A stretch of DNA of 39,670 nucleotides from Candidatus Kuenenia stuttgartensis (lineage in GTDB: Bacteria; Planctomycetota; Planctomycetia; Isosphaerales; Isosphaeraceae): positions 1-39,670 of the forward strand of contig CAMCFM010000001.1 of assembly GCA_945874095.1 (NCBI GenBank), given 5' to 3'. The notes below the pieces were generated by a model that worked only from the letters and a program-made list of their open reading frames with translations, searched no databases and had not been told where the DNA came from. Positions 3,289 through 24,905 of this stretch are shown here, in pieces. The number at the start of each line of letters is the position of its first letter. The stretch's first letter is position 1. The translations under genes were made by a program, and so were the position numbers.

Positions 3289-3314
3289 CTTTCAGGTTCG
3301 TGTCAGGTTGATCA

Positions 3315-4217: not shown

Positions 4218-4246
4218 CAGGGTCGTTTCAGAGTTGTTGAAGAAAC

Positions 4247-4274: not shown

Positions 4275-4321
4275 GAATTGACCGGAAGTGTGACTTCAGC
4301 AGTTTTGGAGAAGGTTTGACC

Positions 4322-6751: not shown

Positions 6752-6919
6752 ACGTTGGTGCCATGGTTCCACTTCCCGGGCCTGGTGGTTTTTAACCCAC
6801 CATAAAAAGTGCCAGGCCTGGAAGTCGTTTTCTGTCGGTGTTGGTCGAATGTCACAAATAGCACTGTGCTGGTTGTGACGTGTTTCTCAGCAAGTTTCAT
6901 CAACAGGACTGCTTTCATC

Positions 6920-7873: not shown

Positions 7874-8006
7874 AAACCGGGCCGGTTGGTGGTTGTCTTT
7901 GGCAACCATTTTACCGGCCACTTGAACTGGTGCGTTATGGTCCAATACCTTCGTGGGTATTGGTTCGGTCTAGTCTCGATAAACTCTGATTGGGGAATAA
8001 ACAGTA

Positions 8007-8681: not shown

Positions 8682-8862
8682 TTTTCAGACCAGAATCAAA
8701 ATCAACCCGCCCCAACACGACTCCGCAGCTTATCATTCCGATGAACTGCGGAGTGGGGAATGGGATGTCATAAGTCTTTACCACGTTCAATTCAAATAAA
8801 AGAATTGTTTTTACACAAAAACGGCCGGCAAGCAAATCAATGTGAAAAGCGGAATGACCTGA

Positions 8863-9387
8863 ATGCCATTTTTTCCGCTGTGGCTCTTCTCATTTGAAAA
8901 TGAGTGCAAAATCGCCCCTGTTACAACTCGCAATCAACAAACCAAATGGCCCAAACACTCGGATACGATTCGTGAGGCAGTTGACGAAAATCCGGATCGA
9001 ACCCTCGACAAACGTCTCGATCACTTGAAGATCGGAATCTCCAGAAGCACGCTTTGCCGCGCGTTGAAGGCATTGAAACTGACAATTAAAAAAGTGCTGA
9101 ACGCCGCGGAGCAAGAACGACCTGACGTGAAAGAAAAACGCCGGGAATGGATCGCTGGCCAAGCCAGCTTGGATCCCGAAAAACTGGTGTTCATCGATGA
9201 AACTTGGTTGAAGACGAATATGACCCGTCCACGTGGATCGTCATTGAAAGGCAAACGGCTTGGTGAAAGTGTACCGTTCGGCCATTGGATAAGGACAACG
9301 TTTGTCGCAGCGTTGCTGGCAATTCTTTGCAGAGTCAGGTACAGATTCGATGTAGAGTACCCCTGCCCTCAAATAGGTCAAGCTTGA
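8863..9387 (+). pseudogene. IS630-family transposase fragment (central part only)
   Basis: ISRSTLCRALKALKLTIKKVLNAAEQERPDVKEKRREWIAGQASLDPEKLVFIDETWLKTNMTRPRGSSLKGKRLGESVPFGHWIRTTFVAAL matches the HTH-linker-first-D (DET) region typical of IS630 transposases. The sequence after FVAAL is unrelated and the distal DDE part is missing. Confidence 0.6.
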
Positions 9388-9405
9388 GTTGCACCACTTA
9401 AAAAG

Positions 9406-10011
9406 TTACGCAATACTCAAGACCATTTCCGTTGGCCATTCATTTTGAATCATCCACCGGGTAGCATAGTTATTTAATTCCGTACCGTTTTTTAATTCGA
9501 GTTTCTCCCGAATTCTGTTGCGGTAGGTCTCAACGGTTTTGATACTCAGATGCAAATGTTCGGCAATTTGTGAAGTGGTATTACCCTCACCAATTTTCCG
9601 AAAAACCTGAAGTTCCCGATTTGCCAGTAGCTCTACCGGAGTATTTGTAGAATTCCGGTTGGGGCTCACCGTGCGCTGGAGAATCTTCTGCGAAATGGTC
9701 TCGATTAAATAAATATTCTCTTCCAAAACCCGACGAATTGCGACGATAATTTTATCGGTGGCCTGATCCTTACTGATAAACCCATGTGCGCCGGCTTTCA
9801 AAGCGCGTTCTGCATAGAGAGACTCATTGTGTGTGGACCAGACCAGCATTGGAATATGATCATCACGATCCCTGATACGCTTGACCAGATCAATCCCTCA
9901 GCCATTTTTGAGTGAGATATCCACAATAGCCATGTCGGGCTTGGTATTTTCCACCAATCGCAAAGCTTCGATCGTATCCTCTGCCTCGCCAGACACGACT
10001 AAGGAACAGGC
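9406..10011 (-). pseudogene. NarL/FixJ (LuxR-type HTH) response regulator, disrupted by an in-frame TGA and loss of the N-terminus
   Basis: ORF 9406..9849 encodes the end of a receiver domain plus a LuxR HTH (LANRELQVFRKIGEGNTTSQIAEHLHLSIKTVETYRNRIREKLEL). Read in the same frame upstream, it gives ACSLVVSGEAEDTIEALRLVENTKPDMAIVDISLKNG*GIDLVKRIRDRDDHIPMLVWS. The stop is a TGA at 9898-9900. The first ~25-30 aa of the receiver, including the acidic pocket, are replaced by the 10041-10248 repeats. Confidence 0.7.
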
Positions 10012-10040
10012 AAGAAATAACTTCCGGTTTTTGGGTGATT

Positions 10041-10248
10041 GGGCTCCAGCGGAGACATCTATTCATAGGTATGTCCGAAGGACATCAACAGCCCCAGCCT
10101 ACCGCCCTCCTTCGTCTGGGCTCCAGCGGAGACATCTACTAATAGGCATGTCCGAAGGACATCCATAGACCTGAGAAGTGTTATCTTTGGACTCCAGCGG
10201 AAACAGCTATTAATAGCTATGTCCGAAGGACATCAACAGCCCCAGCCT
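10041..10248. repeat. Three tandem copies of a 46-60-nt structured repeat
   Basis: Copies start at 10041, 10118 and 10189 (periods 77 and 71 nt). The core is GGGCTCCAGCGGAGACATCTATTCATAGGTATGTCCGAAGGACATC. Copies 1 and 3 continue with AACAGCCCCAGCCT. Each copy holds a 26-nt imperfect hairpin and an overlapping ATGTCC-GAA-GGACAT hairpin. Confidence 0.75.
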
Positions 10249-10450
10249 GACTGGACTTCCCCACGAAAAGTAGACACTGAAACAACAGATCTTACTGGTC
10301 TATATGTGCACTATTCTTGACCGATGTGCAACTCAACTTGCCTGGCCTTTTCAGAAATTGGCTCGTTACGTCGCATGGGTTGGTCGCCATACGCTCCACT
10401 GGCGCTGCGCCGGGGTGAGCGACCAACCCATACTCCTCCACTCCCCAATT

Positions 10451-11173
10451 TTATTCCGCATCGCTGATTTCCCACAAACGTTGCTTTTCGTATTCGATCG
10501 GGCTGAAATAGCCAAGTGAAGAATGCAACCGAGTTCGGTTGTAAAACCGCTCAATATAATCTGCGACCGCACGAGTCGCTTGCTCATGTGTCTGGTACTT
10601 TTGCCGATACACCTCCTCCACCTTGAAGCTTTTGTAAAAGCTCTCCATCGGAGCATTGTCGTAAAGATTGCCATGACGACTCATGGTTTGCACAAGTCCA
10701 TATTTCGACAGACATTGCTCAAATGCAAGACTGGCGTACTGACTGCCTCGATCACTATGGATCATAAGCCCTTTAAGTGTTGACCGTAGGTAAAACCCTC
10801 CTCTGTTGGGATATAAGTGAAGTCTGTCAGCCAGATCTGATTCGGCTTTTGGGCGACAAATTGCTGATCAAGACGATTCGGAGCCACAGGAAAATCATGA
10901 TTGGAGTCGGTCGTCAGGACATTGAATTTCTTGCTGATTCGGGCTTTGATTCCCTGGCGATGCATGAGTTTTGCAACGGAGTTTTCACAGCAGTGATAGC
11001 CTTTTTTTCAGCAATAATCGGTGCATTCGCGGGCTGCCGCAATCGTCCAGTCTATGCGTGGCGTGCACCCGCTTGATTTGCTCAACAAGCTGCTCTTGTT
11101 TCTGAGCCATTTGCGACGGTTCTCGCTTGAGCCACTTGTAGTGAGGCTGCGGTTTGTCGTTCAGAGACCCAAA
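10451..11173 (-). pseudogene. IS3-family transposase (OrfB/rve integrase core), frameshifted and internally deleted
   Basis: ORF 10451..10765 reads MIHSDRGSQYASLAFEQCL...YDNAPMESFYKSFKVEEVY...RTRLHSSLGYFSPIEYE. ORF 10762..10965 reads MHRQGIKAR...IWLTDFTYIPTEEGFTY. Upstream, LNDKPQPHYKWLKREPSQMAQKQEQLVEQIKRVHATHRLDDCGSPRMHRLLLKK is joined through a frameshift at an A7 run (10995-11001 on +). About 60 aa are missing between TEEGFTY and HSDRGSQY. No orfA is present. Confidence 0.75.
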
Positions 11174-14100
11174 TCAGCCCATGCGGGATCTCGCAACAAG
11201 AAGTGTCGAAACCGCTGTCAATCCGAACAGGGAAACGAATAGTAATACGAATGGGAGATTCGAATTCGCAGTCTCAGGTTTATTGCGATCCTTTGACTTT
11301 TTGGCTATCGGATTGGATGATGCCCCCTTCTCCTTTGGATCGGTGGAGTCATTGGCCTGTTTCTCCAAAGCAATACTTTTCCTGACATCCTGATTCGATT
11401 CGGCGGACTGTCGAACGCCTTCGATTGCAGAGACATAAGTGCTTCTGTCTAAATCGGAGAGATTCTCGCCAATATACTCCTGGAGTTTTGCATTATTGCA
11501 AACGAATCCACTACAGGCCGGGTTGAATTCGCGTATCATTTCGAAGTGAGTTGTGGTCAATAAGGCGATTTGCTCAGGAGTCGCCTGCCACAGTCCTTTT
11601 CTCGCAGTCTCCAGCATCACGGCAGTGACTTCCTGCATTGCGAACGGATTCTTGTTACGGAAGTAATCCTTCATTCCCATCTGATATTTGTCCTTGACAT
11701 AGACCTCGTGAAGCTCGTTCCAAAGCTCGTCGTCAATTGCATCAGGCCTCATGGCATTCCATCCATAGGTGTTTCGAACGCTTTCGGCAAAGACTTCAGC
11801 CGCTGATGCCCCTTCCTGCTGAAGCTCCTGGATATATTTTGGGTTGAGTAACGTGGATCGTGCTTCCTGCCAGATTGCTTCTTCGGCATTCTGGACTTTT
11901 GATTGATATTTGTTACGCATATCGACGAAGTATGCAGACGGGTCTTTTCCCGTTGCATCCGCAATTGCATTTGAAAATCCTCCCATAAACTCATAAACAT
12001 GGTCTAGCTTGAGTGGACCGGTCACATTTGAAGTCCGCGAATGCACCAGTGTATCTGTATTCTGTACCGCTGCGTTAAACAGACCAGGCACGAATTCTCC
12101 CCAGTGATCTTCTGTGTAGATCGCTCCCATGTTGTTTTGGTATGTTTCGGCGATCTCTTTGCGATTCTCCCAACGGTCGCCTGCTTCCACCAAGCCCATA
12201 ATTCCGGTTCCGTAATTCCCGTTCACTCCACCGAAAATTCGAGCAGTCGAGAATTTTCTCGCCTCGGCTGGGGAAAGCCCCAATTGCTTTAGCTTTGACT
12301 CGGCAGCGATTGTACCTTCACGCACGTGGTTGGCGAATTTCTCGGAATCGGCAGCTTGTCCGGCAAGCTTTACTGCTCTGTCGATCAGGCTCATTCGAGT
12401 GGCGGCAATGTCGCGAAACTGACCAGCAGTTTGAACAACCACATCAATTCGTGGCCTTCCAAGCTCTTCCACGGGTACTAATCGCACGTCGTGAACCACT
12501 CCGCGTGCATCGCGCACCGGCTCCACACCCAGAAAATGAAAGATCATTGCAAGGTCAACACCCTGACTATTGATAAACTCACCCGGCCAAAGCGTGACGG
12601 CCACCTTCACCGGCTCTTTGCCTGTTTCCTGACGCTTCGATTCAATCGTCTTATCAGCCAGTTTCTTGCCTAAGATCCACGCTTCCGGCGATGGGGTTTT
12701 CTCGGCGTCAATCGGATAAAGGTTACGGCCTGTTGGAACCGATTCCGGGTTCGTTACAGCATCTCCACCCGATGATGGAGAAATGTAGCGCCCGTTAAGC
12801 CCTGCCAGAATCGCCTGGATTTCTGAGTCTGTACTCATTTTAATCCGATCCTGATAGTCTGTAACCGACTGATAAGCATTTGTGAGAGAACGGAGTTGAT
12901 TGACCACTTGCCGTTCCTCCTCATTACGCCTGAGTTTTTCACGACTCAGCATGCCCATGGCTTGTGTCATTTGACTATCAGCGGATTCCTGGACGAGTAA
13001 ATTGCGGAATTTGGCAACGGATTCTGAATGCGAAAGACGATCGGCAAGAGCGGTGTTTTCGCTGGCAAATTTCAACCTCTCTCCAAGCTGATCCAACTGG
13101 TCAGTCTTGAGGGTTTTTAAAAATGAAACGAGGTCTTCATGTGAGAGTGCTGTTAGAATATCCGATTGAAACTCAGGTTTGCTCAGTTCAGCAGCGAATT
13201 TCAATCTTCGTGCCTCAGCTTTTTCGCGAATCTGAGACTGCATCGAGGTATCTGTTAACCAGGAAAGCACTTTATTCCGATTCTCCGCTGATCTCATCGC
13301 ATTAATCAGCTCAGTCATCCCCGGTTTTTGCATCCGATCAAGCGCTTCACGCATGGCTGGCACAAATGTGGCAATACGGCGTGCTTTGCGAAGGGATTCC
13401 GGATCAAGTGATTGAAGAATTCGTTCGTAGTTGGCATCAGTACGCAGAGTTTCGAGAAACTTGAGATTTTCTTGATCATCTGCCACATTCAGAAATTGAA
13501 TTTCAAGCGTAGCGATACTTTGGCCAGGTCTCTGCTTTGTTTCTCCCGAACCACCACCTTTCGGACTTCGACTTTTGGGGTCACCCCCGTTGCCGTTCCG
13601 CTCACCCATTTGAACAAATCTGGCGAACAGGGCATCGTCGCTCATGGTCGGATGGACACGATCCCAATCAGCAATTCTTTTTGTGTCTGCAGGATCCACA
13701 AAGTCGCCCGATTTGGCCGTTCCGGCCAAAATCTTGATGATTGACTCTCGAGCCGGCTGGCGAAAAGCCTTCTCGAAGGCGGAACTGTCGTCAAGTATCT
13801 TATTCGACACTTTTCCTGCAATAATTTTCTTCTGAGCCTCTCCGACGGCTACAGCATCCTGCGACATGAGCCTGGCTGTTTCCTCTGATTCCTCCTTCAA
13901 GTAAGGTCGCCCCAATACATAGAGGCCGCGTGTGATTTTCTCGTCTGCCACGGCATGAAGATAGTCGTGAACCTGTTCAATCTGATCGTCAGTCAGTGGG
14001 TTTGACCCTTCGATTGCGAGCTTAAGGTCTTTTTGCAGATTCAGCTCCGTCACAAGTTTTCTGATTGATATCTCGAGCTCAATTCGAAGCGCTTCGTCCG

Positions 14101-16042
14101 TTGTCGCATCATATCGGCCAATTGTGTCCTGCAAGTTCTTGAGAGGCCCATATAACCCGGATTCAGTCATGGGCGGTGTCAAGTGCGAAACAATGGTCGC
14201 ATAACTGCGGCGCTTTGCGATTACGGCTTCGCCAATGTTATTAATGACATAGACGTAAAGGTGGGGCAGATCCCCTATCAAGGCATCCGGCCAGTCCAAA
14301 TCCGAAAGTGCGTTCTGCTTCCATGGAGTGAACTCCAGACTCCCGTGCGTACCGAAATGCAAAATGGTATCCGCCTGAAAACCATGTCTGGCCCATAAGT
14401 AGGTCGTGATGTAACTGTATGGCGGAGCCTGTTTGGCACCATGAACAAGCCGCTCAGTATCGTCGCCTATGGCTGGCAGGGTTTGAGGTAGAACGGCCAC
14501 ATTGCCGAATTGCAATCGTGGCAATGCAATACACTTCTTCCCATTGTGATCAACGCCAAGATACTCACCTGGAGGTGGACCATATTGTTTCACGACCTCA
14601 GCATACATCGTCGGATCAAGCTGTTTTTTGGCCCATGCTTCGATCTTCCCGACATCTACAAATTCAGGATCGCCCGATTTTACAAATTCGTCTATTTCCC
14701 CCTTGGCATAAGGGCCTAATACAGGGCCCCGCTTACGAATGGTTTCTTCCATGGCTTTGGCATCAGGAGGCAGTTCTCCCGTTTCGTAACCAGCCGCTTT
14801 CAGCGATTTCAAGAGGTTCAGCAACGATGCCCCAACTTCCATCCCACTGGCGACCATTGCGTTCTGGCCAGGCCCCTTGAAATAAACCACAGCGATTTTC
14901 TTTGTCGAATTCGGTTTGGCTCGAAGGTTCAACCAGTGCTGCACGCGAGAGACCAGCTTGTCCATACGTTCAGGCAACGCCTTGGGTACGTTCAACCCTC
15001 GATCATTCGGGAACTGGGCGCTGATCGCAAATGGCTCGATACCACCATCGAGTTCTGGCATCAGGATGTTCTGGGTCATCATCCCGCCTTGCATTCCTTT
15101 TTGCGAGGAAACCCACTTGTCATAGTTTTCAAACACATCGATTGGGCAAATCACCGGTATGCCATTTTCCTGAAGCCACTTTACACATTCGTCTGCTCGC
15201 CCAGCAGCTAAACGCCCGTGCGGAATATAGATGACCAAATCAGGTTTAACGGCTTTCAGATGGTCCAGTCGCTTCATAAAACCTGCAACAGGGTATACGT
15301 TAACGCCCTGTTCCTCGAGTCGATTGACAAGTTCGTCCACATACGACCTGTTTGCCGATCTCGGCCCAAAAATTGATGTCACCAGTGCCACACGATGTTT
15401 ATCAGGCTTGGAGAGCCCTTTCTGATCGCGAAATTTTTCGTAACTGGCCAAATCGGAAAAATAAGCTTCGTCCCCCACATGGAAAAACGCATCCGCAGGA
15501 ATAATGACAGGCGTTTCCGGTTCGTTGGAAAACAGCGTTTTTCCGTCGATCATTCGACGTGTGAATTCCATTAAAGCATGTAAATTCCTCCGCCCACCGT
15601 TCTCAAAATATGCAGCGACTTTTTCCAGCATATCCGACTTCATGTTAGTCACGTCCATAGATGGATTCGTGGCACCAACAACATAAACCAGTAGCCCTCG
15701 TGACGTGGCTTTTCTGACAATCTCGCTTTGCGTTTCTGTGAAATTAACACCACGCCCAAATACGTACATTGCGTGATATTTATTCAAGCTTGCTTTATCC
15801 AGGTCGCCCACATCAAGTTTTGCCAATTGCACCCATGGGTTCGTATTGGCTTCAACCATTTCGTTATACTGAAAGTCTCGAAAATTGACTACCGCGATAC
15901 GAGTTGGAGCGATGTAATGCTCCCATAACCAGGCGAATGATGCTATCGCCAGGCCCAGAATCGCTACGGCGACGATTCGATTTCGGGTAAAACGCTTGCG
16001 TGGTTCCAGGACGGGTTCGGATGATCGTGATGTCTGTTGCAT
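11174..16042 (-). CDS. CobN/Mg-chelatase-family protein (CobN-like, HmuS/BtuS-type context), membrane-anchored at both ends
   Basis: I trimmed ORF 11174..16249 to ATG 16042 (MQQTSRSS...). The longer form would overlap the upstream gene by 128 nt. CobN-family motifs are LHFGTHGSLEFTPWK, DLPHLYVYVINNIGEAVIAKRRSYATIVSHLTPP and SVPTGRNLYPID. The N-terminal TM is IVAVAILGLAIASFAWLW and the C-terminal TM is LPFVLLFVSLFGLTAVSTLLVA. Confidence 0.8.
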   Translation of the reverse strand: MQQTSRSSEPVLEPRKRFTRNRIVAVAILGLAIASFAWLWEHYIAPTRIAVVNFRDFQYNEMVEANTNPWVQLAKLDVGDLDKASLNKYHAMYVFGRGVNFTETQSEIVRKATSRGLLVYVVGATNPSMDVTNMKSDMLEKVAAYFENGGRRNLHALMEFTRRMIDGKTLFSNEPETPVIIPADAFFHVGDEAYFSDLASYEKFRDQKGLSKPDKHRVALVTSIFGPRSANRSYVDELVNRLEEQGVNVYPVAGFMKRLDHLKAVKPDLVIYIPHGRLAAGRADECVKWLQENGIPVICPIDVFENYDKWVSSQKGMQGGMMTQNILMPELDGGIEPFAISAQFPNDRGLNVPKALPERMDKLVSRVQHWLNLRAKPNSTKKIAVVYFKGPGQNAMVASGMEVGASLLNLLKSLKAAGYETGELPPDAKAMEETIRKRGPVLGPYAKGEIDEFVKSGDPEFVDVGKIEAWAKKQLDPTMYAEVVKQYGPPPGEYLGVDHNGKKCIALPRLQFGNVAVLPQTLPAIGDDTERLVHGAKQAPPYSYITTYLWARHGFQADTILHFGTHGSLEFTPWKQNALSDLDWPDALIGDLPHLYVYVINNIGEAVIAKRRSYATIVSHLTPPMTESGLYGPLKNLQDTIGRYDATTDEALRIELEISIRKLVTELNLQKDLKLAIEGSNPLTDDQIEQVHDYLHAVADEKITRGLYVLGRPYLKEESEETARLMSQDAVAVGEAQKKIIAGKVSNKILDDSSAFEKAFRQPARESIIKILAGTAKSGDFVDPADTKRIADWDRVHPTMSDDALFARFVQMGERNGNGGDPKSRSPKGGGSGETKQRPGQSIATLEIQFLNVADDQENLKFLETLRTDANYERILQSLDPESLRKARRIATFVPAMREALDRMQKPGMTELINAMRSAENRNKVLSWLTDTSMQSQIREKAEARRLKFAAELSKPEFQSDILTALSHEDLVSFLKTLKTDQLDQLGERLKFASENTALADRLSHSESVAKFRNLLVQESADSQMTQAMGMLSREKLRRNEEERQVVNQLRSLTNAYQSVTDYQDRIKMSTDSEIQAILAGLNGRYISPSSGGDAVTNPESVPTGRNLYPIDAEKTPSPEAWILGKKLADKTIESKRQETGKEPVKVAVTLWPGEFINSQGVDLAMIFHFLGVEPVRDARGVVHDVRLVPVEELGRPRIDVVVQTAGQFRDIAATRMSLIDRAVKLAGQAADSEKFANHVREGTIAAESKLKQLGLSPAEARKFSTARIFGGVNGNYGTGIMGLVEAGDRWENRKEIAETYQNNMGAIYTEDHWGEFVPGLFNAAVQNTDTLVHSRTSNVTGPLKLDHVYEFMGGFSNAIADATGKDPSAYFVDMRNKYQSKVQNAEEAIWQEARSTLLNPKYIQELQQEGASAAEVFAESVRNTYGWNAMRPDAIDDELWNELHEVYVKDKYQMGMKDYFRNKNPFAMQEVTAVMLETARKGLWQATPEQIALLTTTHFEMIREFNPACSGFVCNNAKLQEYIGENLSDLDRSTYVSAIEGVRQSAESNQDVRKSIALEKQANDSTDPKEKGASSNPIAKKSKDRNKPETANSNLPFVLLFVSLFGLTAVSTLLVARSRMG

Positions 16043-16121
16043 TTTATCTATCTCCGGTTCTGTCCTGCATCCTGATGCAGGACTTTGTGGTGTCAATTGA
16101 GTCAATCGATGAGTGTACGAG

Positions 16122-16463
16122 TTATTCGGGAACGTAAATGATCTGGCCGTTTTCAAGCTCGAAGGCTGTACCGACACGACGGCCTTTGCCTGAGCCTTGT
16201 GTTTTTTCCGAAGCCTTGTAACGGGAAATCTCCTGGCCTTTCTTGACAATTATTTCCATATCAGACTTGCCAGGATTCTTTACCATGGTGACTTCATCCT
16301 GAGTCAGTAGATCTCCAACTTTCAGGCGAGCAACCAAGGCGACCATCAAAGCCAGAGCAAAGACCATCGCCACATCGAAAAGGTTCGCCATCCCCGATAA
16401 AGGATCGTCGTCGCTATCGTCCAAAGTAGAAGTCGAGTCCATCCGACGAAGTTTATTTTCCAT
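16122..16463 (-). CDS. Small single-pass membrane protein (DUF2149-like / ExbD-position partner)
   Basis: GGAGGA lies 7 nt upstream of ATG 16463. The protein has an acidic N-terminus (LDDSDDDPLSGMANLFDV) and then the TM helix AMVFALALMVALV. It overlaps the ExbB-like gene by 11 nt. The family assignment is from memory of the DUF2149 pattern and is not verified. Confidence 0.5.
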   Translation of the reverse strand: MENKLRRMDSTSTLDDSDDDPLSGMANLFDVAMVFALALMVALVARLKVGDLLTQDEVTMVKNPGKSDMEIIVKKGQEISRYKASEKTQGSGKGRRVGTAFELENGQIIYVPE

Positions 16464-17076
16464 GGTGATTCCTCCCCTGCTGGTCTGCCATCCCCAAATT
16501 TAGCAGCCACTCAGTCACTCGCAGATCTTCCAAAGCCCATCGCTGACGAGCCTGGCGACACAAGAAGCCAATCCCTCCAATAAATACTCCGACAACAGTT
16601 GTGGAAAATGCAACTTGAAGATTCGTGGCCATCGTGTCCAGATCTCCTGAGGCCAAACCTTTTAATGCTGGCCCCATGGGGATCAGAGTGCCCATCAGAC
16701 CAAGCATCGGACCCAGGCGAGTGAGTGTCGTTGAAGTTTCCAATGACTTGCGTCCTTGGATTTCAAGATCATCAAGCAGTTTTCGCAGGTGGACCTCGCG
16801 CCACTGAGAATCATTGGCCCGGTTCCATGCCAGAGTCGTTCGTGGACGCCCCTTCGGCAGGCTAGCACCAGTACCGCAAAAGTCTTCAGGCTGGCCCAAC
16901 ATCAACGAATCCTCAAATCGTTTCCATTGACGATGTGTCCGTAGTCGCCTCAACCACTCCGCATGACAATCACCGGCATGAAGCAAAGCCCAAACCAGCA
17001 GCAGGATTTCGCCCGCAATCACGGGTCCTAGTAGCGTATCTGAAAATAGATTCAGCAGACTGTTGAAACTGTTCAA
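16453..17076 (-). CDS. MotA/TolQ/ExbB-family proton-channel protein
   Basis: The C-terminal half LTRLGPMLGLMGTLIPMGPALKGL...NLQVAFSTTVVGVFIGGIGFL matches the ExbB/TolQ signature (GLxGT..G; TT..G). It uses a TTG start that overlaps the upstream stop (TTGA). Confidence 0.7.
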   Translation of the reverse strand: MNSFNSLLNLFSDTLLGPVIAGEILLLVWALLHAGDCHAEWLRRLRTHRQWKRFEDSLMLGQPEDFCGTGASLPKGRPRTTLAWNRANDSQWREVHLRKLLDDLEIQGRKSLETSTTLTRLGPMLGLMGTLIPMGPALKGLASGDLDTMATNLQVAFSTTVVGVFIGGIGFLCRQARQRWALEDLRVTEWLLNLGMADQQGRNHHGK

Positions 17077-17807
17077 GCAAGTCCCCTTTCTTGAAATCGA
17101 TGAATCAGGGTCCGGCCCAGAAAACCCATGAATGGAAGCCCGAGTACGAGAAACCAGATCCAGGCCGGGCCTGATTTAAGGTCGATCACGACACCTGATG
17201 TTCCGAATCCTGATTTTTCACGATTCAGAAGCACAAATGCCACCGCAGACCATGGCAGAAACAGTAGATTTGACATTGCTGCAAGTTCCGTGCGATGCGG
17301 CTTCAATACTGGAATGCCTCGTATGATCAACGAAGAAAACCACATTCCCAGAGCGATCAAAACGCCTGTGATTATTGCAGCCAATTCGAAATCAATCGCA
17401 TTCCATCTCGAAAACACATCGTGCTCGACAAGCAGCAAGGTTGGCACGCAACACAACGCCGGCAAAGTCAGTAGCAAGTCCGCAAGAATACGAATCTTAT
17501 ACCCGGCATCATCTTTCATCGACTTCCAGAGAACGACCGGAACTACAATCGACTCGATGGTGAGTAAAGCCAGTATGGATGTCCTATTGATATCGTCGTT
17601 CAGATAAGACCTTATTCGAAGCTCTGAAACGTCAGCAATCCTGTCTGCCGCATACCAAGCGATGAATATTGTGAACAATGCGATTGCAAAAGTGGCTTTG
17701 CGATAACCCGATGCTGCCCATTTCATGGCTGTGATCAGACATGATAGCGAAAGCCACAGTAAAACAGCCGACTTCAATGGAGGCCTCCCAGATTCTTTTA
17801 TGGACAT
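17073..17807 (-). CDS. Multi-pass integral membrane protein, function unknown
   Basis: The 244-aa ORF has about 6-7 hydrophobic segments. It starts 40 nt after the DUF1559 stop and overlaps the ExbB-like gene by 4 nt. I recognise no motif. Confidence 0.55.
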   Translation of the reverse strand: MSIKESGRPPLKSAVLLWLSLSCLITAMKWAASGYRKATFAIALFTIFIAWYAADRIADVSELRIRSYLNDDINRTSILALLTIESIVVPVVLWKSMKDDAGYKIRILADLLLTLPALCCVPTLLLVEHDVFSRWNAIDFELAAIITGVLIALGMWFSSLIIRGIPVLKPHRTELAAMSNLLFLPWSAVAFVLLNREKSGFGTSGVVIDLKSGPAWIWFLVLGLPFMGFLGRTLIHRFQERGLA

Positions 17808-17846
17808 CCGTCTGTTGTAATCGCACGTTCACTCTTAATTGAAGGA

Positions 17847-18872
17847 TCAATAGGTGTCTGCCGAGATGACCTCGCCACCATTACGTGAAGCTAATGATCG
17901 CCAGGTTTCGACTGGGATCGAATCTTTCACGAACCGAACCGAACCATCTGACATTAACGTAATCACACCTCCTGGATGAAAACTCCTCGCTGCATGCCAG
18001 CCTCGTCCGTGTGCATTAAGATCAGGTATCTTTGAATTTGGTGGCAGATATGCGCTGTATCCTGTACTAGTGAGCCGTCCCACCAGCCAAGAATAACCGC
18101 GATCCCCCCTCCAGCTATTAATATTGCCAGTCAAAGCAGCCAAGTCCGGATTTACTAATTGTTTTCCTCCAAGTGACAAACCTGGCAAGCCTGGAGAAAG
18201 TGATGTATTCGATGCATATTGCCGGTTAAAATCACTTGGTTTTGGACCACTGCTTGTCAGATTGTTACCCAGCCGAATCTGGCTTGCCATCATGGTATTT
18301 GATGTGCCATCAGAGACATTCGCAATCGTGACAGCTGAACCGTACCAAAACATTCCATCCGTTGGAATTTCAATATGATAGTTCAGCATGGTTCCGGATC
18401 CAGTACAAACTGCATAGTTTGTACCAGCAGAATCTCCACCAAGATTTGCAGTAAATCGCGGATTTCCACCATCCGATGGACAGAGAAAGCTGCCAACCAC
18501 ATAATTTGCCGCAGTGATCAGCGGAGGGTTAAATCGAATGTTTGGTCCTGAGCCGGTATAAACAGGCACATTGAAATTGACGAGATTCACAAGTGATGCC
18601 TGTTCCATATAAGGCAGGATTCGTGCAAGGGGTGAGAATGCAAATGCTGTAGAATGGCCGAATCCCGGGAAGCAACCCACAGTGTTTTCGTAATTGTGCA
18701 TCGCAAGTCCAATCTGCTTGAGATTGTTTGTACTGCTGATACGACGGGCTGCTTCTCTGGCAGACTGTACCGCCGGAAGTAGCAATGAAATCAATACCGA
18801 AATGATTGCAATCACAACCAGTAGCTCGATGAGCGTGAAACCTTTTCCAGACTGACTTCTTGTAGTTCGCAT
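17847..18872 (-). CDS. DUF1559 protein with prepilin-type N-terminal cleavage/methylation motif
   Basis: MRTTRSQSGKG|FTLIELLVVIAIISVLISLLLPAVQSAREAARR at the N-terminus. The C-terminal H-X9-DG motif is FHPGGVITLMSDGSVRFVKDSI. Confidence 0.85.
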   Translation of the reverse strand: MRTTRSQSGKGFTLIELLVVIAIISVLISLLLPAVQSAREAARRISSTNNLKQIGLAMHNYENTVGCFPGFGHSTAFAFSPLARILPYMEQASLVNLVNFNVPVYTGSGPNIRFNPPLITAANYVVGSFLCPSDGGNPRFTANLGGDSAGTNYAVCTGSGTMLNYHIEIPTDGMFWYGSAVTIANVSDGTSNTMMASQIRLGNNLTSSGPKPSDFNRQYASNTSLSPGLPGLSLGGKQLVNPDLAALTGNINSWRGDRGYSWLVGRLTSTGYSAYLPPNSKIPDLNAHGRGWHAARSFHPGGVITLMSDGSVRFVKDSIPVETWRSLASRNGGEVISADTY

Positions 18873-19030
18873 GAAATGACCCTAGCTATGACGTATTTGT
18901 GAAAACCTGAACTTGGAACCAAGGCTAAGCCATTGGTATTTAATTGCTTGTTGATCTATGTGCAGGCAATTCCCGCTGAACGACGATAGTCGTCAGAATT
19001 GCACTTATTGAATTCCATATGAATCGAATG

Positions 19031-19120
19031 ATCTAATTCACGGCGATTTCTCCGTTACGACGGTTGGGAGGTCAAGGGTTCAAAGGGGACGGGCTACCAG
19101 TTCCACCCCTCTGCACCACT
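19031..19120 (-). promoter_or_regulatory. Conserved structured leader motif, copy 1 (159 nt upstream of DUF1559 gene 17847..18872)
   Basis: A 62-nt core (19049-19110) matches 21512-21573 at 60 of 62 positions. On the minus strand the hairpin CAGAGGGG...CCCCUUUG differs from the hairpin in copy 2 by compensatory changes. Confidence 0.45.
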
Positions 19121-19144
19121 AAAATAGAACTTCTTTGGTTGGGT

Positions 19145-20239
19145 TCAGTGCGATTTCATTCTATGGGTATTTCCTTTAAATACCTTTTGATTGGAAAAGT
19201 ACAGAATCTGTTTGCCGCACCTGAATATTCTCGATTGATTTGGTACGACTGTTAGCGTCCGGTTCAAAAGAGAAGGTCTGTGATCCACCAGATTAATATC
19301 ATGGACAGAAATCAAAGACGATTGATCAATAACATGCGAACCTGTCGAATGAGAAGCAACCTGGGTTGGAAATAATCCAAGCATTGCGTTCTCAGGTCTG
19401 CACTCGCCTTGACCATTATCAAACCAGTCTCGAATCAGAGCAACGATCCCTGGTTTGCCTTCGCCTATATATAATTCCCGTCGTTTTTTATACTCCGAAA
19501 GAATGAGTTCTGCCTGAGCCTTGATTTCAATGTCTTCGCTCCTGGGAGAAGATCCTTTGGGAATCGCCCAGACAAATCTGTTGGTTTGTGAAACATGCGT
19601 TGCAACCGAAAAGAAGTCGCGAGGAATCAATTTCGTGTCTTTTGAACTCAGTCTCGACTTTTCCGCTTCCACAAAGAAATCAACTGCATAGTCAGGGTAC
19701 CCAAACTGATATCCCGATGCACGCAACCGGTCGGACCGATCGGCGTGTTCCATCTTCTCAATAATTGTCATTGCTCTGGTTTCGGGAGTCAATCCATATG
19801 CGTCATAGAATGACGAGTGCTTTTCAACCATGGTCCTGAGCGATTTACGATTCGCAATCCATGCATGCGCATGACGCTTACCACCTGTAAGAGCTTGAAA
19901 AACCAGAACCTCGGATTCGAATGCTTCGCCACACTGAAATGCATCTAGAATCTTGCGTGTTTCACGGATTGATGACAATTCGGGCTGTGTTACTGAAAAA
20001 CTGCCTGTCCAGAACGAACTTGAAATCGGTTTCAGACTTCCAACCACTGTGTACAGTGCCTCACTGTCCATCAGTTTCAAAAGCAGTTGCTCGGCTTTCT
20101 TTTGTAATTCCGGTGGCAATTTTTCGACAGGAAAGCAGTCGTACCGGCTGACACCGACACCCTGGCCATTCGCTGCAAAGGTGTAAAGCATCATCAGCAA
20201 CACATTCAACACAAGCTTCATCAAGTTTCGAATTGTCAT
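19145..20239 (-). CDS. Secreted protein of unknown function
   Basis: I trimmed ORF 19145..20398 to ATG 20239 (MTIRNLMKLVLNVLLMMLYTFAANGQG, a signal peptide) to remove the overlap with the upstream DUF1559 gene. No motif recognised. Confidence 0.6.
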   Translation of the reverse strand: MTIRNLMKLVLNVLLMMLYTFAANGQGVGVSRYDCFPVEKLPPELQKKAEQLLLKLMDSEALYTVVGSLKPISSSFWTGSFSVTQPELSSIRETRKILDAFQCGEAFESEVLVFQALTGGKRHAHAWIANRKSLRTMVEKHSSFYDAYGLTPETRAMTIIEKMEHADRSDRLRASGYQFGYPDYAVDFFVEAEKSRLSSKDTKLIPRDFFSVATHVSQTNRFVWAIPKGSSPRSEDIEIKAQAELILSEYKKRRELYIGEGKPGIVALIRDWFDNGQGECRPENAMLGLFPTQVASHSTGSHVIDQSSLISVHDINLVDHRPSLLNRTLTVVPNQSRIFRCGKQILYFSNQKVFKGNTHRMKSH

Positions 20240-20294
20240 AGGATTCAGGCCTCTTGTACTTTCTTCGTTGCAACTCAGGGAGAAAATCGATTGA

Positions 20295-21332
20295 TTAATA
20301 GGTGTCACCACTAAAAACCTCTCCTCCAGACCTTGTTCCCAAAGCTCGATATGTCTTGAGATCGATTGATTCCTTGAGAAATCGAACTGATCCGTCACTC
20401 ATCAAGAAGTTTGCACCGCCAGGATGCAAACTCCGAAACCCGAATTGACCGAGTAACAAACTCCTCGGATCATCCACCCAAGTCTTCGAATGTGTACCGT
20501 TTGAAGGATCCACAACCCATGATGGTCTGCCAATATAAGGCCTTGAATTTAGCTTCGGTACAACATAGGAGCCACCTGAGATACGAATGTCATTCCAGCT
20601 TTCATATCTGGGCGGAGTTCCTAGATCGCCCCCTCCCCATGCTCCTCCCACATTCGCAATGTTGAATCGACTGTATGGAGATTCCTCACGAAATCGCGAT
20701 GTTTCACCCACCATCAGAGTGTTGCTTAAACCATCTGATATATTTGCAATGGAATAAGATACGTTTCTACCAAAAACACCCTCTGAAATAATGGCACCAC
20801 ATAACTGTGCGTTCATGACATTAGTGCCAGTTCCATAGTTGTTTGCGATGCATTCTGTAAGCCCAAAGACTCCAGCGTATGAGATCTGCGTAATCTTAAA
20901 ACTGGTTCGCGACTGATCCGCCTTGGTATCGGTTGGGCAAAGAAACGTTGCCACGGAATTTTCCCATACAGATGTATTTGGTGGGAAACCTGCAGGATGA
21001 CTAAAGTTCAAGGCATTGTATTTATTGCCCTGCTCCAGGTATGGCATGATGTAGTTTGACCAGGTGTGCCCCCAGCTCGATGTGCATGGAACCTGAGTGT
21101 ACCGAGATTGGGCAATATAACCAGGTGGAAATGTACCGATCGCATTTTCGTAATTATGGATCGCCAACCCAAACTGCTTCATGTTATTGGAGCATTGGAT
21201 TCGACGGGCTGCTTCCCTGGCAGACTGAACCGCCGGAAGTAGCAACGAGATCAATACCGAAATGATTGCAATCACAACCAGTAACTCAATGAGTGTGAAT
21301 GCTTTCAGCTGCTCTTTCCCTGAAATCTTCAT
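20295..21332 (-). CDS. DUF1559 protein with prepilin-type N-terminal cleavage/methylation motif
   Basis: ORF 20295..21362. I prefer ATG 21332 (MKISGKEQLKA|FTLIELLVVIAIISVLISLLLPAVQSAREAARR). It gives the same 11-aa leader as the paralogue and has GAGAGG 6 nt upstream. The H-X9-DG motif is LHPGGANFLMSDGSVRFLKESI. Confidence 0.85.
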   Translation of the reverse strand: MKISGKEQLKAFTLIELLVVIAIISVLISLLLPAVQSAREAARRIQCSNNMKQFGLAIHNYENAIGTFPPGYIAQSRYTQVPCTSSWGHTWSNYIMPYLEQGNKYNALNFSHPAGFPPNTSVWENSVATFLCPTDTKADQSRTSFKITQISYAGVFGLTECIANNYGTGTNVMNAQLCGAIISEGVFGRNVSYSIANISDGLSNTLMVGETSRFREESPYSRFNIANVGGAWGGGDLGTPPRYESWNDIRISGGSYVVPKLNSRPYIGRPSWVVDPSNGTHSKTWVDDPRSLLLGQFGFRSLHPGGANFLMSDGSVRFLKESIDLKTYRALGTRSGGEVFSGDTY

Positions 21333-21493
21333 TAGAACCTCTCTTCTTACATGCGAGTGCATGCTTCTCGATTCTGACTAGCGGCAAGTTATTGCTATTT
21401 GGTGGTTTATTGATTGGCGCAGTGGTGCATTTTGCGAAATAGACGACCATTTACGCAGTTTCGCACTTGTGAGAATTCACTAAAATCAGGATA

Positions 21494-21583
21494 ATCTACT
21501 TCATGGCTTTCTCTCCGTTACGACGGTTGGGAGGTCAAGGGTTCGAAGGGGACGGGCTACCAATTCCACCCCTTCGGCCCACT
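21494..21583 (-). promoter_or_regulatory. Conserved structured leader motif, copy 2 (162 nt upstream of DUF1559 gene 20295..21332)
   Basis: Same motif as 19031-19120. The hairpin CGAAGGGG (21544-21551 on +) / CCCCTTCG (21569-21576) is perfect. Confidence 0.45.
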
Positions 21584-21610
21584 TTTTATCTGACTGCTAT
21601 TGCAACTGGA

Positions 21611-22846
21611 TCAATTGTTTTCAACCGAGTTAGCTTCGGCCCTCTTTACATCCCATTTTGGGAAAGGATCCTGGAAGAAGCCCCAGGAATCAGGCCCTGC
21701 TTTCATCTCTTCATCTGTCAATAAGCATTCTTGAAGTGCATCGTAAATGGCAATCTCATCCATTCCGATTCCAATAAAGACCAGCTCCTGTCGGCAGTCA
21801 CCAACCTGTGGATCCCAGTACTTTTGAATGGATGTCGTAAAACCGGGTACATCAGGCCACTCAGAAATGGGTACGGATGCCCACCAGAAACCGGCAACAT
21901 CGAGCCTCGCCACACGACCAGCCTGTGACCAGACTCCAACTTTATCAAGCCTTGTTGCCAGCCAGAAAAACCCCTTTGAACGTAGTACGCCTTGCCACGA
22001 TTGCCTTAGTATCTCAAAAAACCGTTGAGGATGAAACGGTCTCCTGGATCTATATACAAAGCTGCTGACGCCATACTCTTCGGTTTCCGTTGTACCTTCC
22101 TCACGTAAAGCGACTTGCCAGCCTTTCGACATTTTCGCCCGTTCGAAATCAAATCGTTTTGTGCCTACAATCTTCTCTAGTGGTACCTCGCCGAATTGCG
22201 AATCTACAAGGAGAGCATAAGGATTGAGCTTTTCCAGGAATAATCGCAACTCAGCCATCTCACCCTTGCTAACCAGATCGGATTTGTTCATCACAATCAC
22301 GTCGGCAAATTCAACCTGATCGATCAATAAGTCGGCCATAGTCCGAATGTCCTGATCAGAAGCCGCTTGGCCACGATTCTGTAAATCCTCGCCGATCCGT
22401 AGGTCGCTCAGAAAATTGACTGCATCGACCACGGTTACCATCGTGTCCAACTCCGCAAAATCAGACAATGCCTGGCCGTTGGCCAACGCAAAAGTAAAGG
22501 TGTCGGCCACCGGAGCGGGCTCTGAAATGCCAGTCGATTCGATAAGGAGATAGTCAAATCGCCCTTCACTGGCTAATTGACTCACCTCTATCAATAGGTC
22601 CTCCCGGAGAGTGCAGCAAATGCAACCATTGGTCATTTCAACCAATTTCTCTTCCGAGCGGCTCAAAGCCGCTGAGCCATTGGCAATCAATTGAGCATCG
22701 ATATTTACCTCGCTCATATCATTCACAATCACAGCAACTTTGAGACCATCACGATTACTCAAAACGTGATTCAGAAGGCTGGTTTTGCCGGCTCCCAGAA
22801 AACCTGAGAGCACCGTGACAGGAAGCTTTTTTACAAGCTTATTCAT
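21611..22846 (-). CDS. COG0523-family (CobW/ZigA/YeiR-like) metallochaperone GTPase
   Basis: I trimmed ORF 21611..22930 to ATG 22846, which has GGAGGGA upstream. It carries the P-loop [13 protein letters not shown], the CXCC metal motif [19 protein letters not shown] and NKSDL. Confidence 0.85.
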
Positions 22847-24143
22847 TGCTCCCTCCTGTATCACGATCAAATTGAATTTGTGATTCCGAATCAGGTTCCT
22901 CAAAAACCCAAAGCTCAAACGGATCTTCAAGTTCCTGCCAGGACTCGACTCCGCTCCTTATCTCGGATTCACTCAACAAACAGTTGTTCAAAGAGGCAAT
23001 CATTGCATCCTGATCCATGTCGATACCAATAAAAACCAACTCCTGGGCCCGGTCCCCCCATATGGGATGCCAATTATTCATGACTCGTTCACATTCTATA
23101 GGGTCGTCAGGCCATTCCTCTTTCGGCGTAATCGCCAGCCATTTCCCAGCATATTCAATACGGCAATTATGACCTGCCATTGAATAATAACCCACGTCGT
23201 CATTACGACTTGCGAGCCATAGAAATCCTTTCGCCCGCAATAAACCGTGCGGCGGTTTATTGATCCAGCTCCATAATCGAGCAGGGTGAAATGGCTTTGT
23301 GGATCGATAAACAAAACTTGTGACACCGTATTCGTCTGCTTCGGATGCTACCATATCCCGTGGTGATGATAACCAGCCTTCTGACTTCTCGGCATTCTGG
23401 AATTCAAAAAGACCTGTCCCCATGATCTCTTCGACTGCAATCCGACCATAGCTGGTCCTTAAGAACTTCGCCGAAGGATTCAACTTTCTCACAAACGACT
23501 CAATCTGACTCAGTTGATCTTCGTCCACCAAATCCGTTTTGTTAATCAAAATGACGTTGGCAAACTCGACCTGATCAATCAACAGATCCACGATCGACCG
23601 ATCGTCAGATTCGTTCACCGCCCAACCACGATCCTGGAGTTCATCGGTCGTTCCAAATTCATTGAAAAATGAACGGGCATCAATCACTGTAACCATCGTA
23701 TCAAGTCGAGCAAGACTTTTGAGACTTTGCCCTTCATCATCCTGAAATGTAAATGTTTCAGCCACCGGCATCGGCTCAGAGATTCCTGTGGATTCTATTA
23801 ATAGATACTCAAAGCGGCCATCCTGGGCAAGCTTTGAAACCTCTTCAAGCAAATCTTCCCTCAGAGTACAGCAAATACAACCATTGGTCATCTCAATGAG
23901 TTTTTCATCGCGACGAACAAATGATGAATCTGGCCCTGGTGGCCTGGAGATCAACTTCGAATCAATATTGATCTCACTCATATCATTAACGATTACTGCA
24001 ATTTTCAGCCCTTGAGTATTTGATAGAATCTGGTTCAAAAGCGTTGTTTTGCCTGAACCGAGGAATCCGGACAACACTGTGACTGGTAATCGGGAATCCG
24101 CAACTGATTGCATTTCTCTCTGAGCGTTCACTAAAGTTTTCAT
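22839..24143 (-). CDS. COG0523-family metallochaperone GTPase (tandem paralogue)
   Basis: I trimmed ORF 22839..24248 to ATG 24143 (MKTLVNAQ...). It carries [32 protein letters not shown] and NKTDL. It overlaps the downstream paralogue by 8 nt. Confidence 0.85.
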
Positions 24144-24572: not shown

Positions 24573-24905
24573 TTAAACAATAAATTCCATAGGAGGTGCT
24601 CTTGAACGTGATCTAAAACAATCTGATGCATCAAAATTGATGATCAGCAAACTTTTGAAATACTCCCCGCTCTCATAGCATACAAGAGAAGACTGCGAAT
24701 CGTACATTGCCTGAAATTGTGTCAGAATTTCACAAATCGGACACTCGACATCACTGCTTTCAAGAGTGTTATCGAAATGCAAACCATCCGACTGGCACTG
24801 TTCACGTCCATGATGATCAAATATCGGCAGGCCGTGCAACGACTCGCCCATGCTTGTCAGCAAGGTCAAGAAAACCAGAAGTGTGGATACTGCTCGGTTG
24901 GGCAT
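24573..24905 (-). CDS. Hypothetical small Cys-containing secreted or membrane protein
   Basis: ORF 24573..24983. ATG 24905 gives MPNRAVSTLLVFLTLLTSMGESLHG, which is signal-like. No homology recognised. It could be spurious. Confidence 0.3.
   Translation of the reverse strand: MPNRAVSTLLVFLTLLTSMGESLHGLPIFDHHGREQCQSDGLHFDNTLESSDVECPICEILTQFQAMYDSQSSLVCYESGEYFKSLLIINFDASDCFRSRSRAPPMEFIV

Follow-up and report, generated by a model that had tools for sequence, protein, structure and literature searches.

A DUF1559 prepilin-type gene heads a candidate metal-extraction operon in Isosphaeraceae

Two described systems come closest to the gene cluster that is the subject of this report. In Bacteroidota, the hmuYRSTUV locus encodes a hemophore, a TonB-dependent receptor (TBDR), the CobN-like protein HmuS, the hypothetical protein HmuT, the MotA/ExbB-type protein HmuU and the DUF2149 protein HmuV (PMC11681262). 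HmuS of Bacteroides thetaiotaomicron is a proven NADH-dependent haem de-chelatase that turns haem into protoporphyrin IX and Fe(II); its hallmarks are a haem ligated by His-254 and Met-79 (site 1) and a Met-rich insertion, and its catalytic site 2 is common to the whole chelatase superfamily (PMC12583661). In Pseudomonas aeruginosa, PA1922-PA1925 encode a TBDR along with CobN-like, ExbB-like and DUF2149 proteins; these genes are regulated by Zur, their expression rises 44- to 147-fold in a znuA mutant or under zinc depletion, and their function is unknown (PMC4542158, PMC9431628, PMC11761036). The cluster described here lies on a stretch of 39,670 nucleotides (the window) deposited as Candidatus Kuenenia stuttgartensis and placed by GTDB in the Isosphaeraceae (assembly GCA_945874095.1, contig CAMCFM010000001.1, positions 1 to 39,670). 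It contains the same kind of module, headed by a prepilin-type gene of the DUF1559 family. DUF1559 is the largest paralogous family in Planctomycetes: Planctopirus limnophila has 68 copies, of which two are essential, and Tuwongella has 91 (PMC10632474, PMC8567305), and no paper was found in the literature that ties it to this or any pathway.

The five genes of the operon and one element in a spacer are, in the order of transcription:

17847..18872, minus strand: DUF1559b, prepilin-type, first gene of the five-gene operon (Pfam PF07596, N_methyl)
17073..17807, minus strand: polytopic inner-membrane protein of 244 aa, HmuT equivalent (iterative hidden Markov model (HMM) search)
16453..17076, minus strand: MotA/TolQ/ExbB-family proton-channel protein, HmuU / PA1924 type (Pfam PF01618)
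16122..16463, minus strand: DUF2149 protein, HmuV / PA1925 type (Pfam PF09919)
16062..16083: perfect hairpin with a 9-bp stem, in the spacer between the DUF2149 gene and the CobN-like gene
11174..16042, minus strand: HmuS-like class-I chelatase/de-chelatase homologue of 1622 aa, annotated 'CobN-like' (Pfam PF02514)

The original prediction, made from the sequence alone, had seen a row of co-directional minus-strand genes with two conserved leaders at these and the adjoining positions. Intact open reading frames (ORFs) were found throughout, and between 24143 and 11174 we count eight intact co-directional genes and two leaders. The family calls made at that time (DUF1559, MotA/ExbB, DUF2149, CobN-like and COG0523) agree with both Pfam and NCBIfam. 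Tight packing of the last five genes had also been claimed, and here the 4- and 11-nt overlaps stand and the gaps of 40 and 80 nt do not: the gap after DUF1559b measures 39 nt and the one ahead of the CobN-like gene 79 nt, and between them the MotA/ExbB gene overlaps its upstream neighbour by 4 nt and its downstream neighbour by 11 nt. The hairpin at 16062-16083, with the arms GTCCTGCAT...ATGCAGGAC, falls within the 79-nt spacer. mRNA structures have been described between the hmu genes of Porphyromonas gingivalis (PMC11681262). Promoters and terminators were scanned for across the cluster, and their counts did not exceed the expectation from shuffled sequence.

The CobN-like protein matches Pfam PF02514 with 983 bits and stays far below the cut-offs of all NCBIfam CobN and BchH equivalog models (the best CobN model gives 667, with a cut-off of 1248). 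Its best match in the PDB is the HmuS haem de-chelatase 9d26 with 1098 bits, followed by ChlH with 400 and CobN with 348. Judged by these scores, it is best regarded as a homologue of HmuS and not as a cobaltochelatase. His-254 (in PHGRL), His-538, Glu-577, Asp-1208 and His-1209 are kept, and the dyad motifs GTHGS, NIGEA and LDHVYEF align with HmuS; the dyad residues are found across the superfamily and thus do not discriminate. The position of HmuS Met-79 is occupied by Arg in the window enzyme (FGRGV; residue 97), as it is in 5/5 full-length planctomycete sequences tabulated. The insertion of about 283 aa is not Met-rich, having 10 Met (3.5% vs 2.7% in the whole protein). Transmembrane segments are found at residues 23-41 and 1598-1616, the first of them after a basic stretch (RKRFTRNR), so the bulk of the enzyme is predicted to be periplasmic, held in the membrane by an anchor at either terminus.

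The MotA/ExbB-like protein matches PF01618 with 41 bits (cut-off 22.9) and has weak similarity to TolQ structures. The DUF2149 protein, which is single-pass and ExbD/TolR-like, matches PF09919 with 109 bits. Its motif DP....ANLFD.AMVFAxALM is kept in at least 90% of 65 homologues, and an invariant Asp opens the single transmembrane helix, as in ExbD and TolR; a sequence search against solved structures gave no match. The 244-aa polytopic membrane protein matches nothing in Pfam or NCBIfam, and is tied by iterative HMM search to a protein with 6-7 transmembrane segments that lies beside MotA in nearly all related loci, including those of Bacteroidales. Compared with the 5:2 motors TonB-ExbB-ExbD, Tol-Pal and MotAB, the window likewise pairs a MotA_ExbB channel with a single-pass partner that carries an Asp in its transmembrane helix, and the two genes are translationally coupled as in these motors. 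However, DUF2149 takes the place of ExbD (PF02472) as the partner, TonB, TolA and peptidoglycan-binding domains are absent, and the window-type module always adds the HmuT-like polytopic protein. The window ORFs that were scanned against Pfam contain no TonB_C, Plug or TonB_dep_Rec domain, and an iterative search of the window with TBDR seeds was likewise empty. The original prediction had drawn on the rule that ExbB/ExbD-type proteins energise uptake across the outer membrane. This cannot simply be transferred to a window without TonB and without an outer-membrane receptor.

The likeness to the P. gingivalis hmu locus, which had also been pointed out, goes further than the enzyme: the membrane protein, the MotA/ExbB-like protein, the DUF2149 protein and the CobN-like protein correspond to HmuT, HmuU, HmuV and HmuS. 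The window and hmuYRSTUV (of P. gingivalis and B. thetaiotaomicron) thus share four core proteins, an anchored enzyme and the catalytic residues. They differ in the order of the genes (S-T-U-V in hmu, T-U-V-S here), in the Met-79 and Met-rich insertion of HmuS as opposed to Arg and an insertion not rich in Met, and in that the HmuY hemophore and HmuR receptor of hmu are replaced in the window by the DUF1559 prepilin-type gene. The neighbours differ too, being iron genes in hmu-type loci and ZigA-type COG0523 genes in the window. With PA1922-25 the window shares the combination of CobN-like, MotA/ExbB and DUF2149 proteins. There, however, the first gene encodes a TBDR instead of DUF1559.

For a broader comparison, one genome per GTDB species was scanned with an alignment of the CobN-like protein, which gave at least 77 loci from many phyla, and further loci (numbered below with an L) were added by look-ups of individual homologues. 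Six-frame ORFs were labelled by iterative HMM searches seeded with the window proteins and two TBDRs, receptor and prepilin neighbours were counted within 3.5 kb of the module, and all trees are neighbour-joining trees. Enzyme, membrane protein, MotA and DUF2149 recur together almost everywhere that the contigs allow. A TBDR without a prepilin gene is found in at least about 56 loci, all but one or two of which (Verrucomicrobia) lie outside the Planctomycetes-Verrucomicrobia-Chlamydiae (PVC) superphylum, and the common order in these is TBDR-CobN-membrane protein-MotA-DUF2149, with the receptor gene directly upstream of the enzyme gene. A prepilin-type gene without a TBDR is found in at least 16 loci; it heads the module in 15 of the 16 and follows the enzyme gene in L007. 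Among the matches listed, a single locus, L004, has both. Receptor and prepilin gene thus alternate almost exclusively. The prepilin loci are distributed as follows:

Planctomycetia: the window, L083, L002, L001, L003, L089 and L091
Sedimentisphaerales: L059
Victivallales and Lentisphaerae: L010, L019, L021, L037, L042 and L045
Others: L007, a metagenome-assembled genome (MAG) of Omnitrophota, and L060, an 'Ignavibacteria' MAG

The type of prepilin gene is not the same in all of them. In Planctomycetia it is a full DUF1559 gene; its product in Lentisphaeria and Phycisphaerae is shorter (about 255 aa) and aligns with no more than the beginning of the DUF1559 model. The complete block DUF1559-membrane protein-MotA-DUF2149-CobN is found in at least seven planctomycete loci (the window, L083, L002, L001 from Aquisphaera insulae, L003, L089/L090 and L091 from Paludisphaera rhizosphaerae), at 50-70% identity of the CobN-like protein. 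The gap between the DUF1559 gene and the membrane protein gene is 33-45 nt in five of the six loci in which both genes are complete, and 141 nt in L083. The flanks of the block differ in every planctomycete locus. Finding this five-gene order on six other independent contigs with unrelated flanks is far beyond chance, and a block that is kept while its flanks change is the usual signature of a selected operon. Conserved synteny beyond this genome, the lack of which the original prediction had named among the results that would refute it, is therefore present in Planctomycetia, and in Lentisphaeria and Phycisphaerae an analogous prepilin-type gene heads the module.

DUF1559b matches PF07596 with 184 bits as well as N_methyl, TIGR04294 and TIGR02532. 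It has a class-III signal G|FTLIE (GFTLIELLVV) with Glu+5 and a C-terminal H-X9-DG motif. In its AlphaFold 2 (AF2) model (predicted local distance difference test (pLDDT) score 92), a pilin helix of about 50 residues (14-65) is followed by a mixed alpha/beta globular domain of about 275 residues. When the model was compared with the PDB by Foldseek, only the pilin helix gave matches and the globular domain had no structural relative, so that the fold hints at neither a ligand nor a partner. The Pfam name SBP_bac_10 raises the idea of a solute-binding-protein fold, which was dropped since Foldseek gave no significant match beyond the helix. DUF1559 shares the class-III signal, Glu+5 and the helix of about 50 residues with type II secretion system (T2SS) pseudopilins and type IV pilins such as GspG and PilA. 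Unlike in these, the globular domain with its H-X9-DG motif is without a structural relative, genes for an assembly ATPase, a platform protein or a secretin are absent nearby, and the partner is a metal-handling module; the window ORFs that were scanned against Pfam included none for T2SS or type IV pilus assembly. In the tree, the operon-linked DUF1559 proteins form one clade, the internal structure of which mirrors the tree of the CobN-like enzyme. This clade includes neither the second paralogue of the window, DUF1559a (PF07596, 190 bits), nor the remaining DUF1559 genes of these loci. When named database entries are ranked by their match to DUF1559b, the best are the operon-linked Aquisphaera and Paludisphaera proteins, together with proteins from Tautonia. 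The trees indicate that, in Planctomycetia, one DUF1559 clade has been co-inherited with the module.

Taken together, the row from 17847 to 11174 may be seen as a PVC-specific version of the envelope module known as hmuSTUV or PA1923-25. The HmuS-like enzyme, anchored in the inner membrane and facing the periplasm, would remove or exchange the metal in a chelate; we infer both the direction of this reaction and its substrate, most likely a tetrapyrrole-like compound. The MotA/ExbB-like channel, the ExbD-like DUF2149 protein and the HmuT-like protein would supply proton-motive energy. DUF1559b would stand in for the TBDR (and hemophore) of other phyla as a substrate-capturing or force-transmitting periplasmic partner; physically it could capture substrate, transmit force in the manner of TonB or assemble into a short pseudopilus. 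The original prediction, which is borne out in part, had proposed a machine for metal or tetrapyrrole acquisition or remodelling, in which DUF1559 may span the envelope or capture the substrate. In this organism the module would most likely be part of a zinc-starvation response. For the whole of this explanation, namely a periplasmic metal-extraction module in which DUF1559 replaces receptor and hemophore and which is probably deployed under zinc starvation together with ZigA-type chaperones, we see about an even chance of being right.

The part of this that concerns zinc depends on the genes further upstream in the row, which are, again in the order of transcription:

24573..24905 (ORF to 24983), minus strand: possible ninth gene, small membrane-anchored Cys/His protein (motif, no Pfam match)
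22839..24143, minus strand: COG0523 GTPase #1, ZigA-like (NCBIfam)
21611..22846, minus strand: COG0523 GTPase #2, ZigA-type zinc metallochaperone (Pfam cobW and CobW_C, NCBIfam)
21363..21610, minus strand: leader 1, conserved core 21500-21585 (sequence comparison)
20295..21362 (alternative start 21332), minus strand: DUF1559a, second prepilin-type paralogue (Pfam PF07596)
19145..20239, minus strand: UNK364, secreted 364-aa protein of an uncharacterised family (no Pfam or NCBIfam match)
18873..19144, minus strand: leader 2, conserved core 19037-19122 (sequence comparison)

Both COG0523 GTPases contain the CxCC motif (GCICCT). Against the NCBIfam ZigA model NF038288 (cut-off 600), GTPase #2 passes with 605 and GTPase #1 is slightly under with 561. 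Against the CobW model TIGR02475 (cut-off 332) the scores are only 141 and 138, respectively. The end of #1 overlaps the start of #2 by 8 nt, ATGAATAA. We infer zinc regulation of the module in this organism because two ZigA-type metallochaperones lie in the row, and because the enzyme is without the Met ligand of HmuS, as are the Zur-linked homologues of Proteobacteria.

The position of Met-79 is informative in a wider sense. Of 89 homologues among the matches listed, 48 have Arg here, 23 have Met and 6 have His. COG0523 neighbours are seen in 9/42 loci of the Arg type vs 0/29 of the Met/His type among the matches listed (p = 0.0085, kinship ignored), and flavodoxin, FeoB, Fur-like or DtxR-like neighbours in 0/42 vs 15/29 (p = 8e-8, kinship again ignored). 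Flavodoxin by itself adjoins 12 of the 29 Met/His-type loci and none of the 42 Arg-type loci listed. Flavodoxin has been suggested to feed electrons to HmuS (PMC12583661), and its position beside Met/His-type enzymes fits this suggestion. It is plausible that the haem of site 1 relays the electrons that reduce ferric haem, something that would be needless for redox-inert Zn(II). At least 11 proteobacterial loci of the Arg type have palindromes that are Zur-box-like by the gamma- and beta-proteobacterial consensus; these lie in promoter regions or near them, no further than about 0.6 kb from a gene for a TBDR, CobN or COG0523, and in 4 of the 11 loci the site is placed between the CobN gene and a divergent TBDR gene. 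A 17-bp Zur palindrome has been described (PMC4542158), and this too was a basis for calling the sites Zur-box-like. The link of PA1922-25 to zinc starvation has a counterpart in the sampled proteobacterial homologues, which are Arg-type, have Zur-box-like sites and often have COG0523 neighbours. From these alignments and gene contexts, Arg as opposed to Met or His appears to be a marker that separates zinc-context from iron-context members of the HmuS/PA1923 family. Paludisphaera (L091) has a C-minus L33 paralogue and an ArsP_1 permease 4.5 kb downstream of the operon. The permease has a weak, sub-threshold similarity to SO_0444-family transporters, and the pair is weakly suggestive of a zinc island.

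A number of observations weigh against the zinc-linked, receptor-replacing module proposed above. PA1922-25 is regulated by Zur, whereas a Zur box of the proteobacterial type was not found in the window, with the limit that this consensus may not be that of the host, and a search for shared k-mers in planctomycete upstream regions gave no convincing common motif. The window enzyme also lies outside the proteobacterial Arg-type clade: the tree groups the planctomycete enzymes with Met-type relatives from an iron context (Phycisphaerae, Latescibacterota, Solibacteraceae), as do five of the six columns that discriminate between the clades. Their Arg-79 would then be an independent, convergent change, Arg having arisen at least twice, namely in Planctomycetia and in the main clade, which unites Proteobacteria, Cytophagales and Vicinamibacterales, and because of this the inference of zinc does not follow from shared ancestry. 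The neighbour statistics come without phylogenetic correction and from a non-exhaustive sample of loci. Among planctomycete loci, COG0523 genes are adjacent only in the lineage of this organism. The original prediction had counted the COG0523 pair as part of the cluster, and the pair does lie in the same row here, but it is absent within 7-10 kb in L001, L003, L089 and L091. With regard to DUF1559, the modelled globular domain has no structural relative that would point to ligand binding, and one nested member of the operon clade (L092) precedes DUF1800/DUF1501 instead of the module. Finally, the numerous DUF1559 genes generally adjoin genes for exported proteins (PMC8567305), so that adjacency alone is weak evidence for a specific role.

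Some of these points would also fit an ordinary haem-iron salvage system, with a true HmuS that strips Fe(II), an accidental adjacency of COG0523 and a response to iron or haem. HmuS is the closest solved relative and the catalytic dyads and His-254 are kept, the planctomycete clade stands next to Met-type enzymes whose loci contain DtxR-like, FeoB, flavodoxin or TBDR/ExbBD/TonB genes, and the nearest planctomycete loci have no COG0523. Nevertheless, the axial Met-79 is replaced by Arg in every full-length planctomycete sequence tabulated, iron-type neighbours, flavodoxin included, are absent from all 42 Arg-type loci among the matches listed, the insertion is not Met-rich, and the same co-directional row contains two ZigA-type GTPases. 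We regard haem-iron salvage as unlikely, while considering it the most probable of the alternatives. A cobalt or B12 cluster, with CobN as the aerobic cobaltochelatase and the COG0523 pair as CobW cobalt chaperones, is what the annotations would suggest, given that database homologues are named 'cobaltochelatase subunit CobN' and Pfam labels the GTPases cobW, and papers on P. aeruginosa have speculated on cobalt (PMC4542158, PMC8531726). It is very improbable indeed. Every CobN and BchH equivalog is far under its cut-off, the HmuS score is three times that for CobN, the enzyme is predicted to be membrane-anchored and to face the periplasm, the GTPases match ZigA over CobW, and no CobS/CobT-type AAA+ or VWA partner and no other cob gene was found among the window ORFs scanned against Pfam.

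A different kind of doubt concerns DUF1559 itself, which may be no functional part of the module and may have been fixed upstream of it for another reason, for example because it serves export or positioning in general or brings a promoter with it. Planctomycete genomes have between 41 and about 100 paralogues, evenly spread and often beside signal-peptide genes (PMC8567305, PMC10632474), the same loci contain further DUF1559 genes elsewhere, and the member of the same clade in L092 is linked to DUF1800/DUF1501. All of this would fit such a bystander, which we nevertheless judge improbable: position, strand and short spacing have been kept over family-level divergence while the genes outside all differ, the linked proteins are one clade congruent with the enzyme tree, in Lentisphaeria and Phycisphaerae this slot is filled by another, shorter gene of the prepilin type, and all but one of the prepilin-carrying loci among the matches listed are without a TBDR. 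At the other extreme, the idea of DUF1559b as a receptor substitute can be extended to the whole family. DUF1559 proteins would then be the periplasm-spanning working parts of an uptake route of PVC bacteria that is independent of TonB and receptors, in which a pilin-like protein, moved or assembled by a dedicated MotA/ExbB-DUF2149-HmuT motor, captures a metal chelate and passes it to the periplasmic de-chelatase, and each of the 40-100 paralogues would be a substrate-specific adaptor for the exported protein next to it. This too is improbable, and it is put forward as a speculation.

The core module and the COG0523 family were already known. Three findings appear to be new: across PVC lineages, DUF1559 or another prepilin-type gene takes the place of the TBDR in a conserved manner; one DUF1559 clade is inherited together with the module; and the presence of Arg as opposed to Met/His is a marker that goes with a zinc as opposed to an iron context. 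For DUF1559, a large orphan family, this would be the first conserved and testable functional context, in that one of its clades holds the slot of the TonB-dependent receptor in an operon with a de-chelatase homologue and a proton-driven motor. Culturable Isosphaeraceae (Paludisphaera, Aquisphaera, Tautonia) allow specific experiments on DUF1559. The residue-79 marker also bears on the unexplained PA1922-25, which are among the most strongly zinc-repressed loci of P. aeruginosa.

The two leaders, which had been described as conserved, are indeed nearly identical within the window. They have a common core of about 75 nt (100% over about 60 nt, with flanks of about 84-87%), and a 27-nt pattern from this core occurs in exactly two copies in the window against 0 expected in shuffles. 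The element begins about 36-40 nt past the stop codon of the preceding gene, and the shared segment runs on into the first 155 nt or so of both DUF1559 genes. DUF1559a and DUF1559b are 37% identical overall, with the first 45 or so residues nearly identical. The core can be drawn as two hairpins, the first being GGGGTGG...CCGTCCCC and the second, after it, a small one; in a diverged copy in L083, a compensatory change from G-C to A-U preserves the first. The folding energies are no better than those of shuffles (z = -1.5 and -0.4), Rfam contains no matching leader family (the whole window was searched at the gathering threshold and 18800-21700 at E<=10), and three leader sequences are too few for a covariance model. 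A search with nhmmer against all fetched loci, together with one exact-pattern scan of JGI metagenomes, found copies only in the same species (L084-L088, 96% identity) and the diverged one in L083. The leaders are thus a lineage-specific duplicated segment and not a widespread regulatory element. Leader and N-terminal segment together look like the product of a partial duplication or gene conversion, and the sharing of this segment suggests a common regulation of the two DUF1559 genes.

UNK364, the secreted protein encoded between the two DUF1559 genes, matches nothing in Pfam or NCBIfam, and its AF2 model (pLDDT about 98 over residues 30-290) gave no fold match in the PDB by Foldseek. Its 106 homologues, from Isosphaeraceae, Armatimonadota, Acidobacteriota, Chitinophagaceae and others, are all annotated as hypothetical; two of them are fused to a di-haem cytochrome c peroxidase. 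The order UNK364-leader-DUF1559 is kept in L083 (68% identity). The possible ninth gene at 24573-24905 encodes a membrane anchor, a His-containing stretch, a CPICEILTQFQ motif and a C-terminal SRSRAPP, with no match in Pfam, and probably belongs to the same row. Relatives are found directly upstream of DUF1559 cassettes in L089 (about 5900-6350) and L092 (129-437 and 9490-9801). In six-frame translations of all collected loci, the motif C[PA]xCxxLxxQ occurs four times, each time ahead of a DUF1559 cassette. By this pattern the ORF looks like a member of an unannotated family of small proteins associated with DUF1559 units.

The surroundings of the operon in other genomes provide further examples. 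In Victivallales and Lentisphaerae (L010, L021, L042 and L045) there is a conserved cluster, at about 5000-10000, of a 207-214-aa protein of unknown nature, a flavodoxin, a Fur-family regulator, the short prepilin-type protein and a secreted protein of 135-140 aa, which goes on with HmuT-, HmuU- and HmuV-like genes and then a Met-type HmuS; in L042 only the part from the Fur-family regulator onward was seen. From its gene content it looks like an iron or haem version of the pilin-headed operon. In Isosphaeraceae, an extracytoplasmic function (ECF) sigma-factor gene lies directly ahead of the DUF1559 gene of the operon (L091 6600-7181, L001 6900-7169), and a trio of MoxR AAA+, DUF58 and transglutaminase (or DUF4129) genes recurs beside it (L091 14190-20479, L003 2013-6152). 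In L092 (829-9187) a row of ECF sigma, DUF1559, DUF58, transglutaminase, MoxR and ArsP_1 genes occurs without hmu-like genes. In L002 (70% identity; 7762-13582) the operon is followed by genes for a DUF4198 protein, a tetratricopeptide repeat (TPR) protein and an ABC-2/DUF3526 transporter, a combination that in other bacteria often adjoins receptors for metal uptake.

In the window itself, the plus strand at 1167-8681 encodes five PEP-CTERM proteins, two of them with NHL repeats, around a phosphodiesterase/TPR protein. The PEP-CTERM protein at 8007-8681 (224 aa) was considered as a candidate for the zinc exoprotein ZepA (PMC10957091) and rejected, as it is without histidines. It is worth noting that L084, a 39.5-kb ENA metagenome contig, has essentially the same sequence as the window. 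Fragments of IS630-like and ISL3-like transposases bracket the region (8863-9387 and 27714-28205), and the cluster may sit in a variable part of the genome. Further to the right, 29324-39215 encodes an SNF2-family helicase of 1001 aa, an Eco57I/MmeI-like methylase fusion of 1878 aa and a DUF429 protein, and this flank looks like a restriction or defence island.

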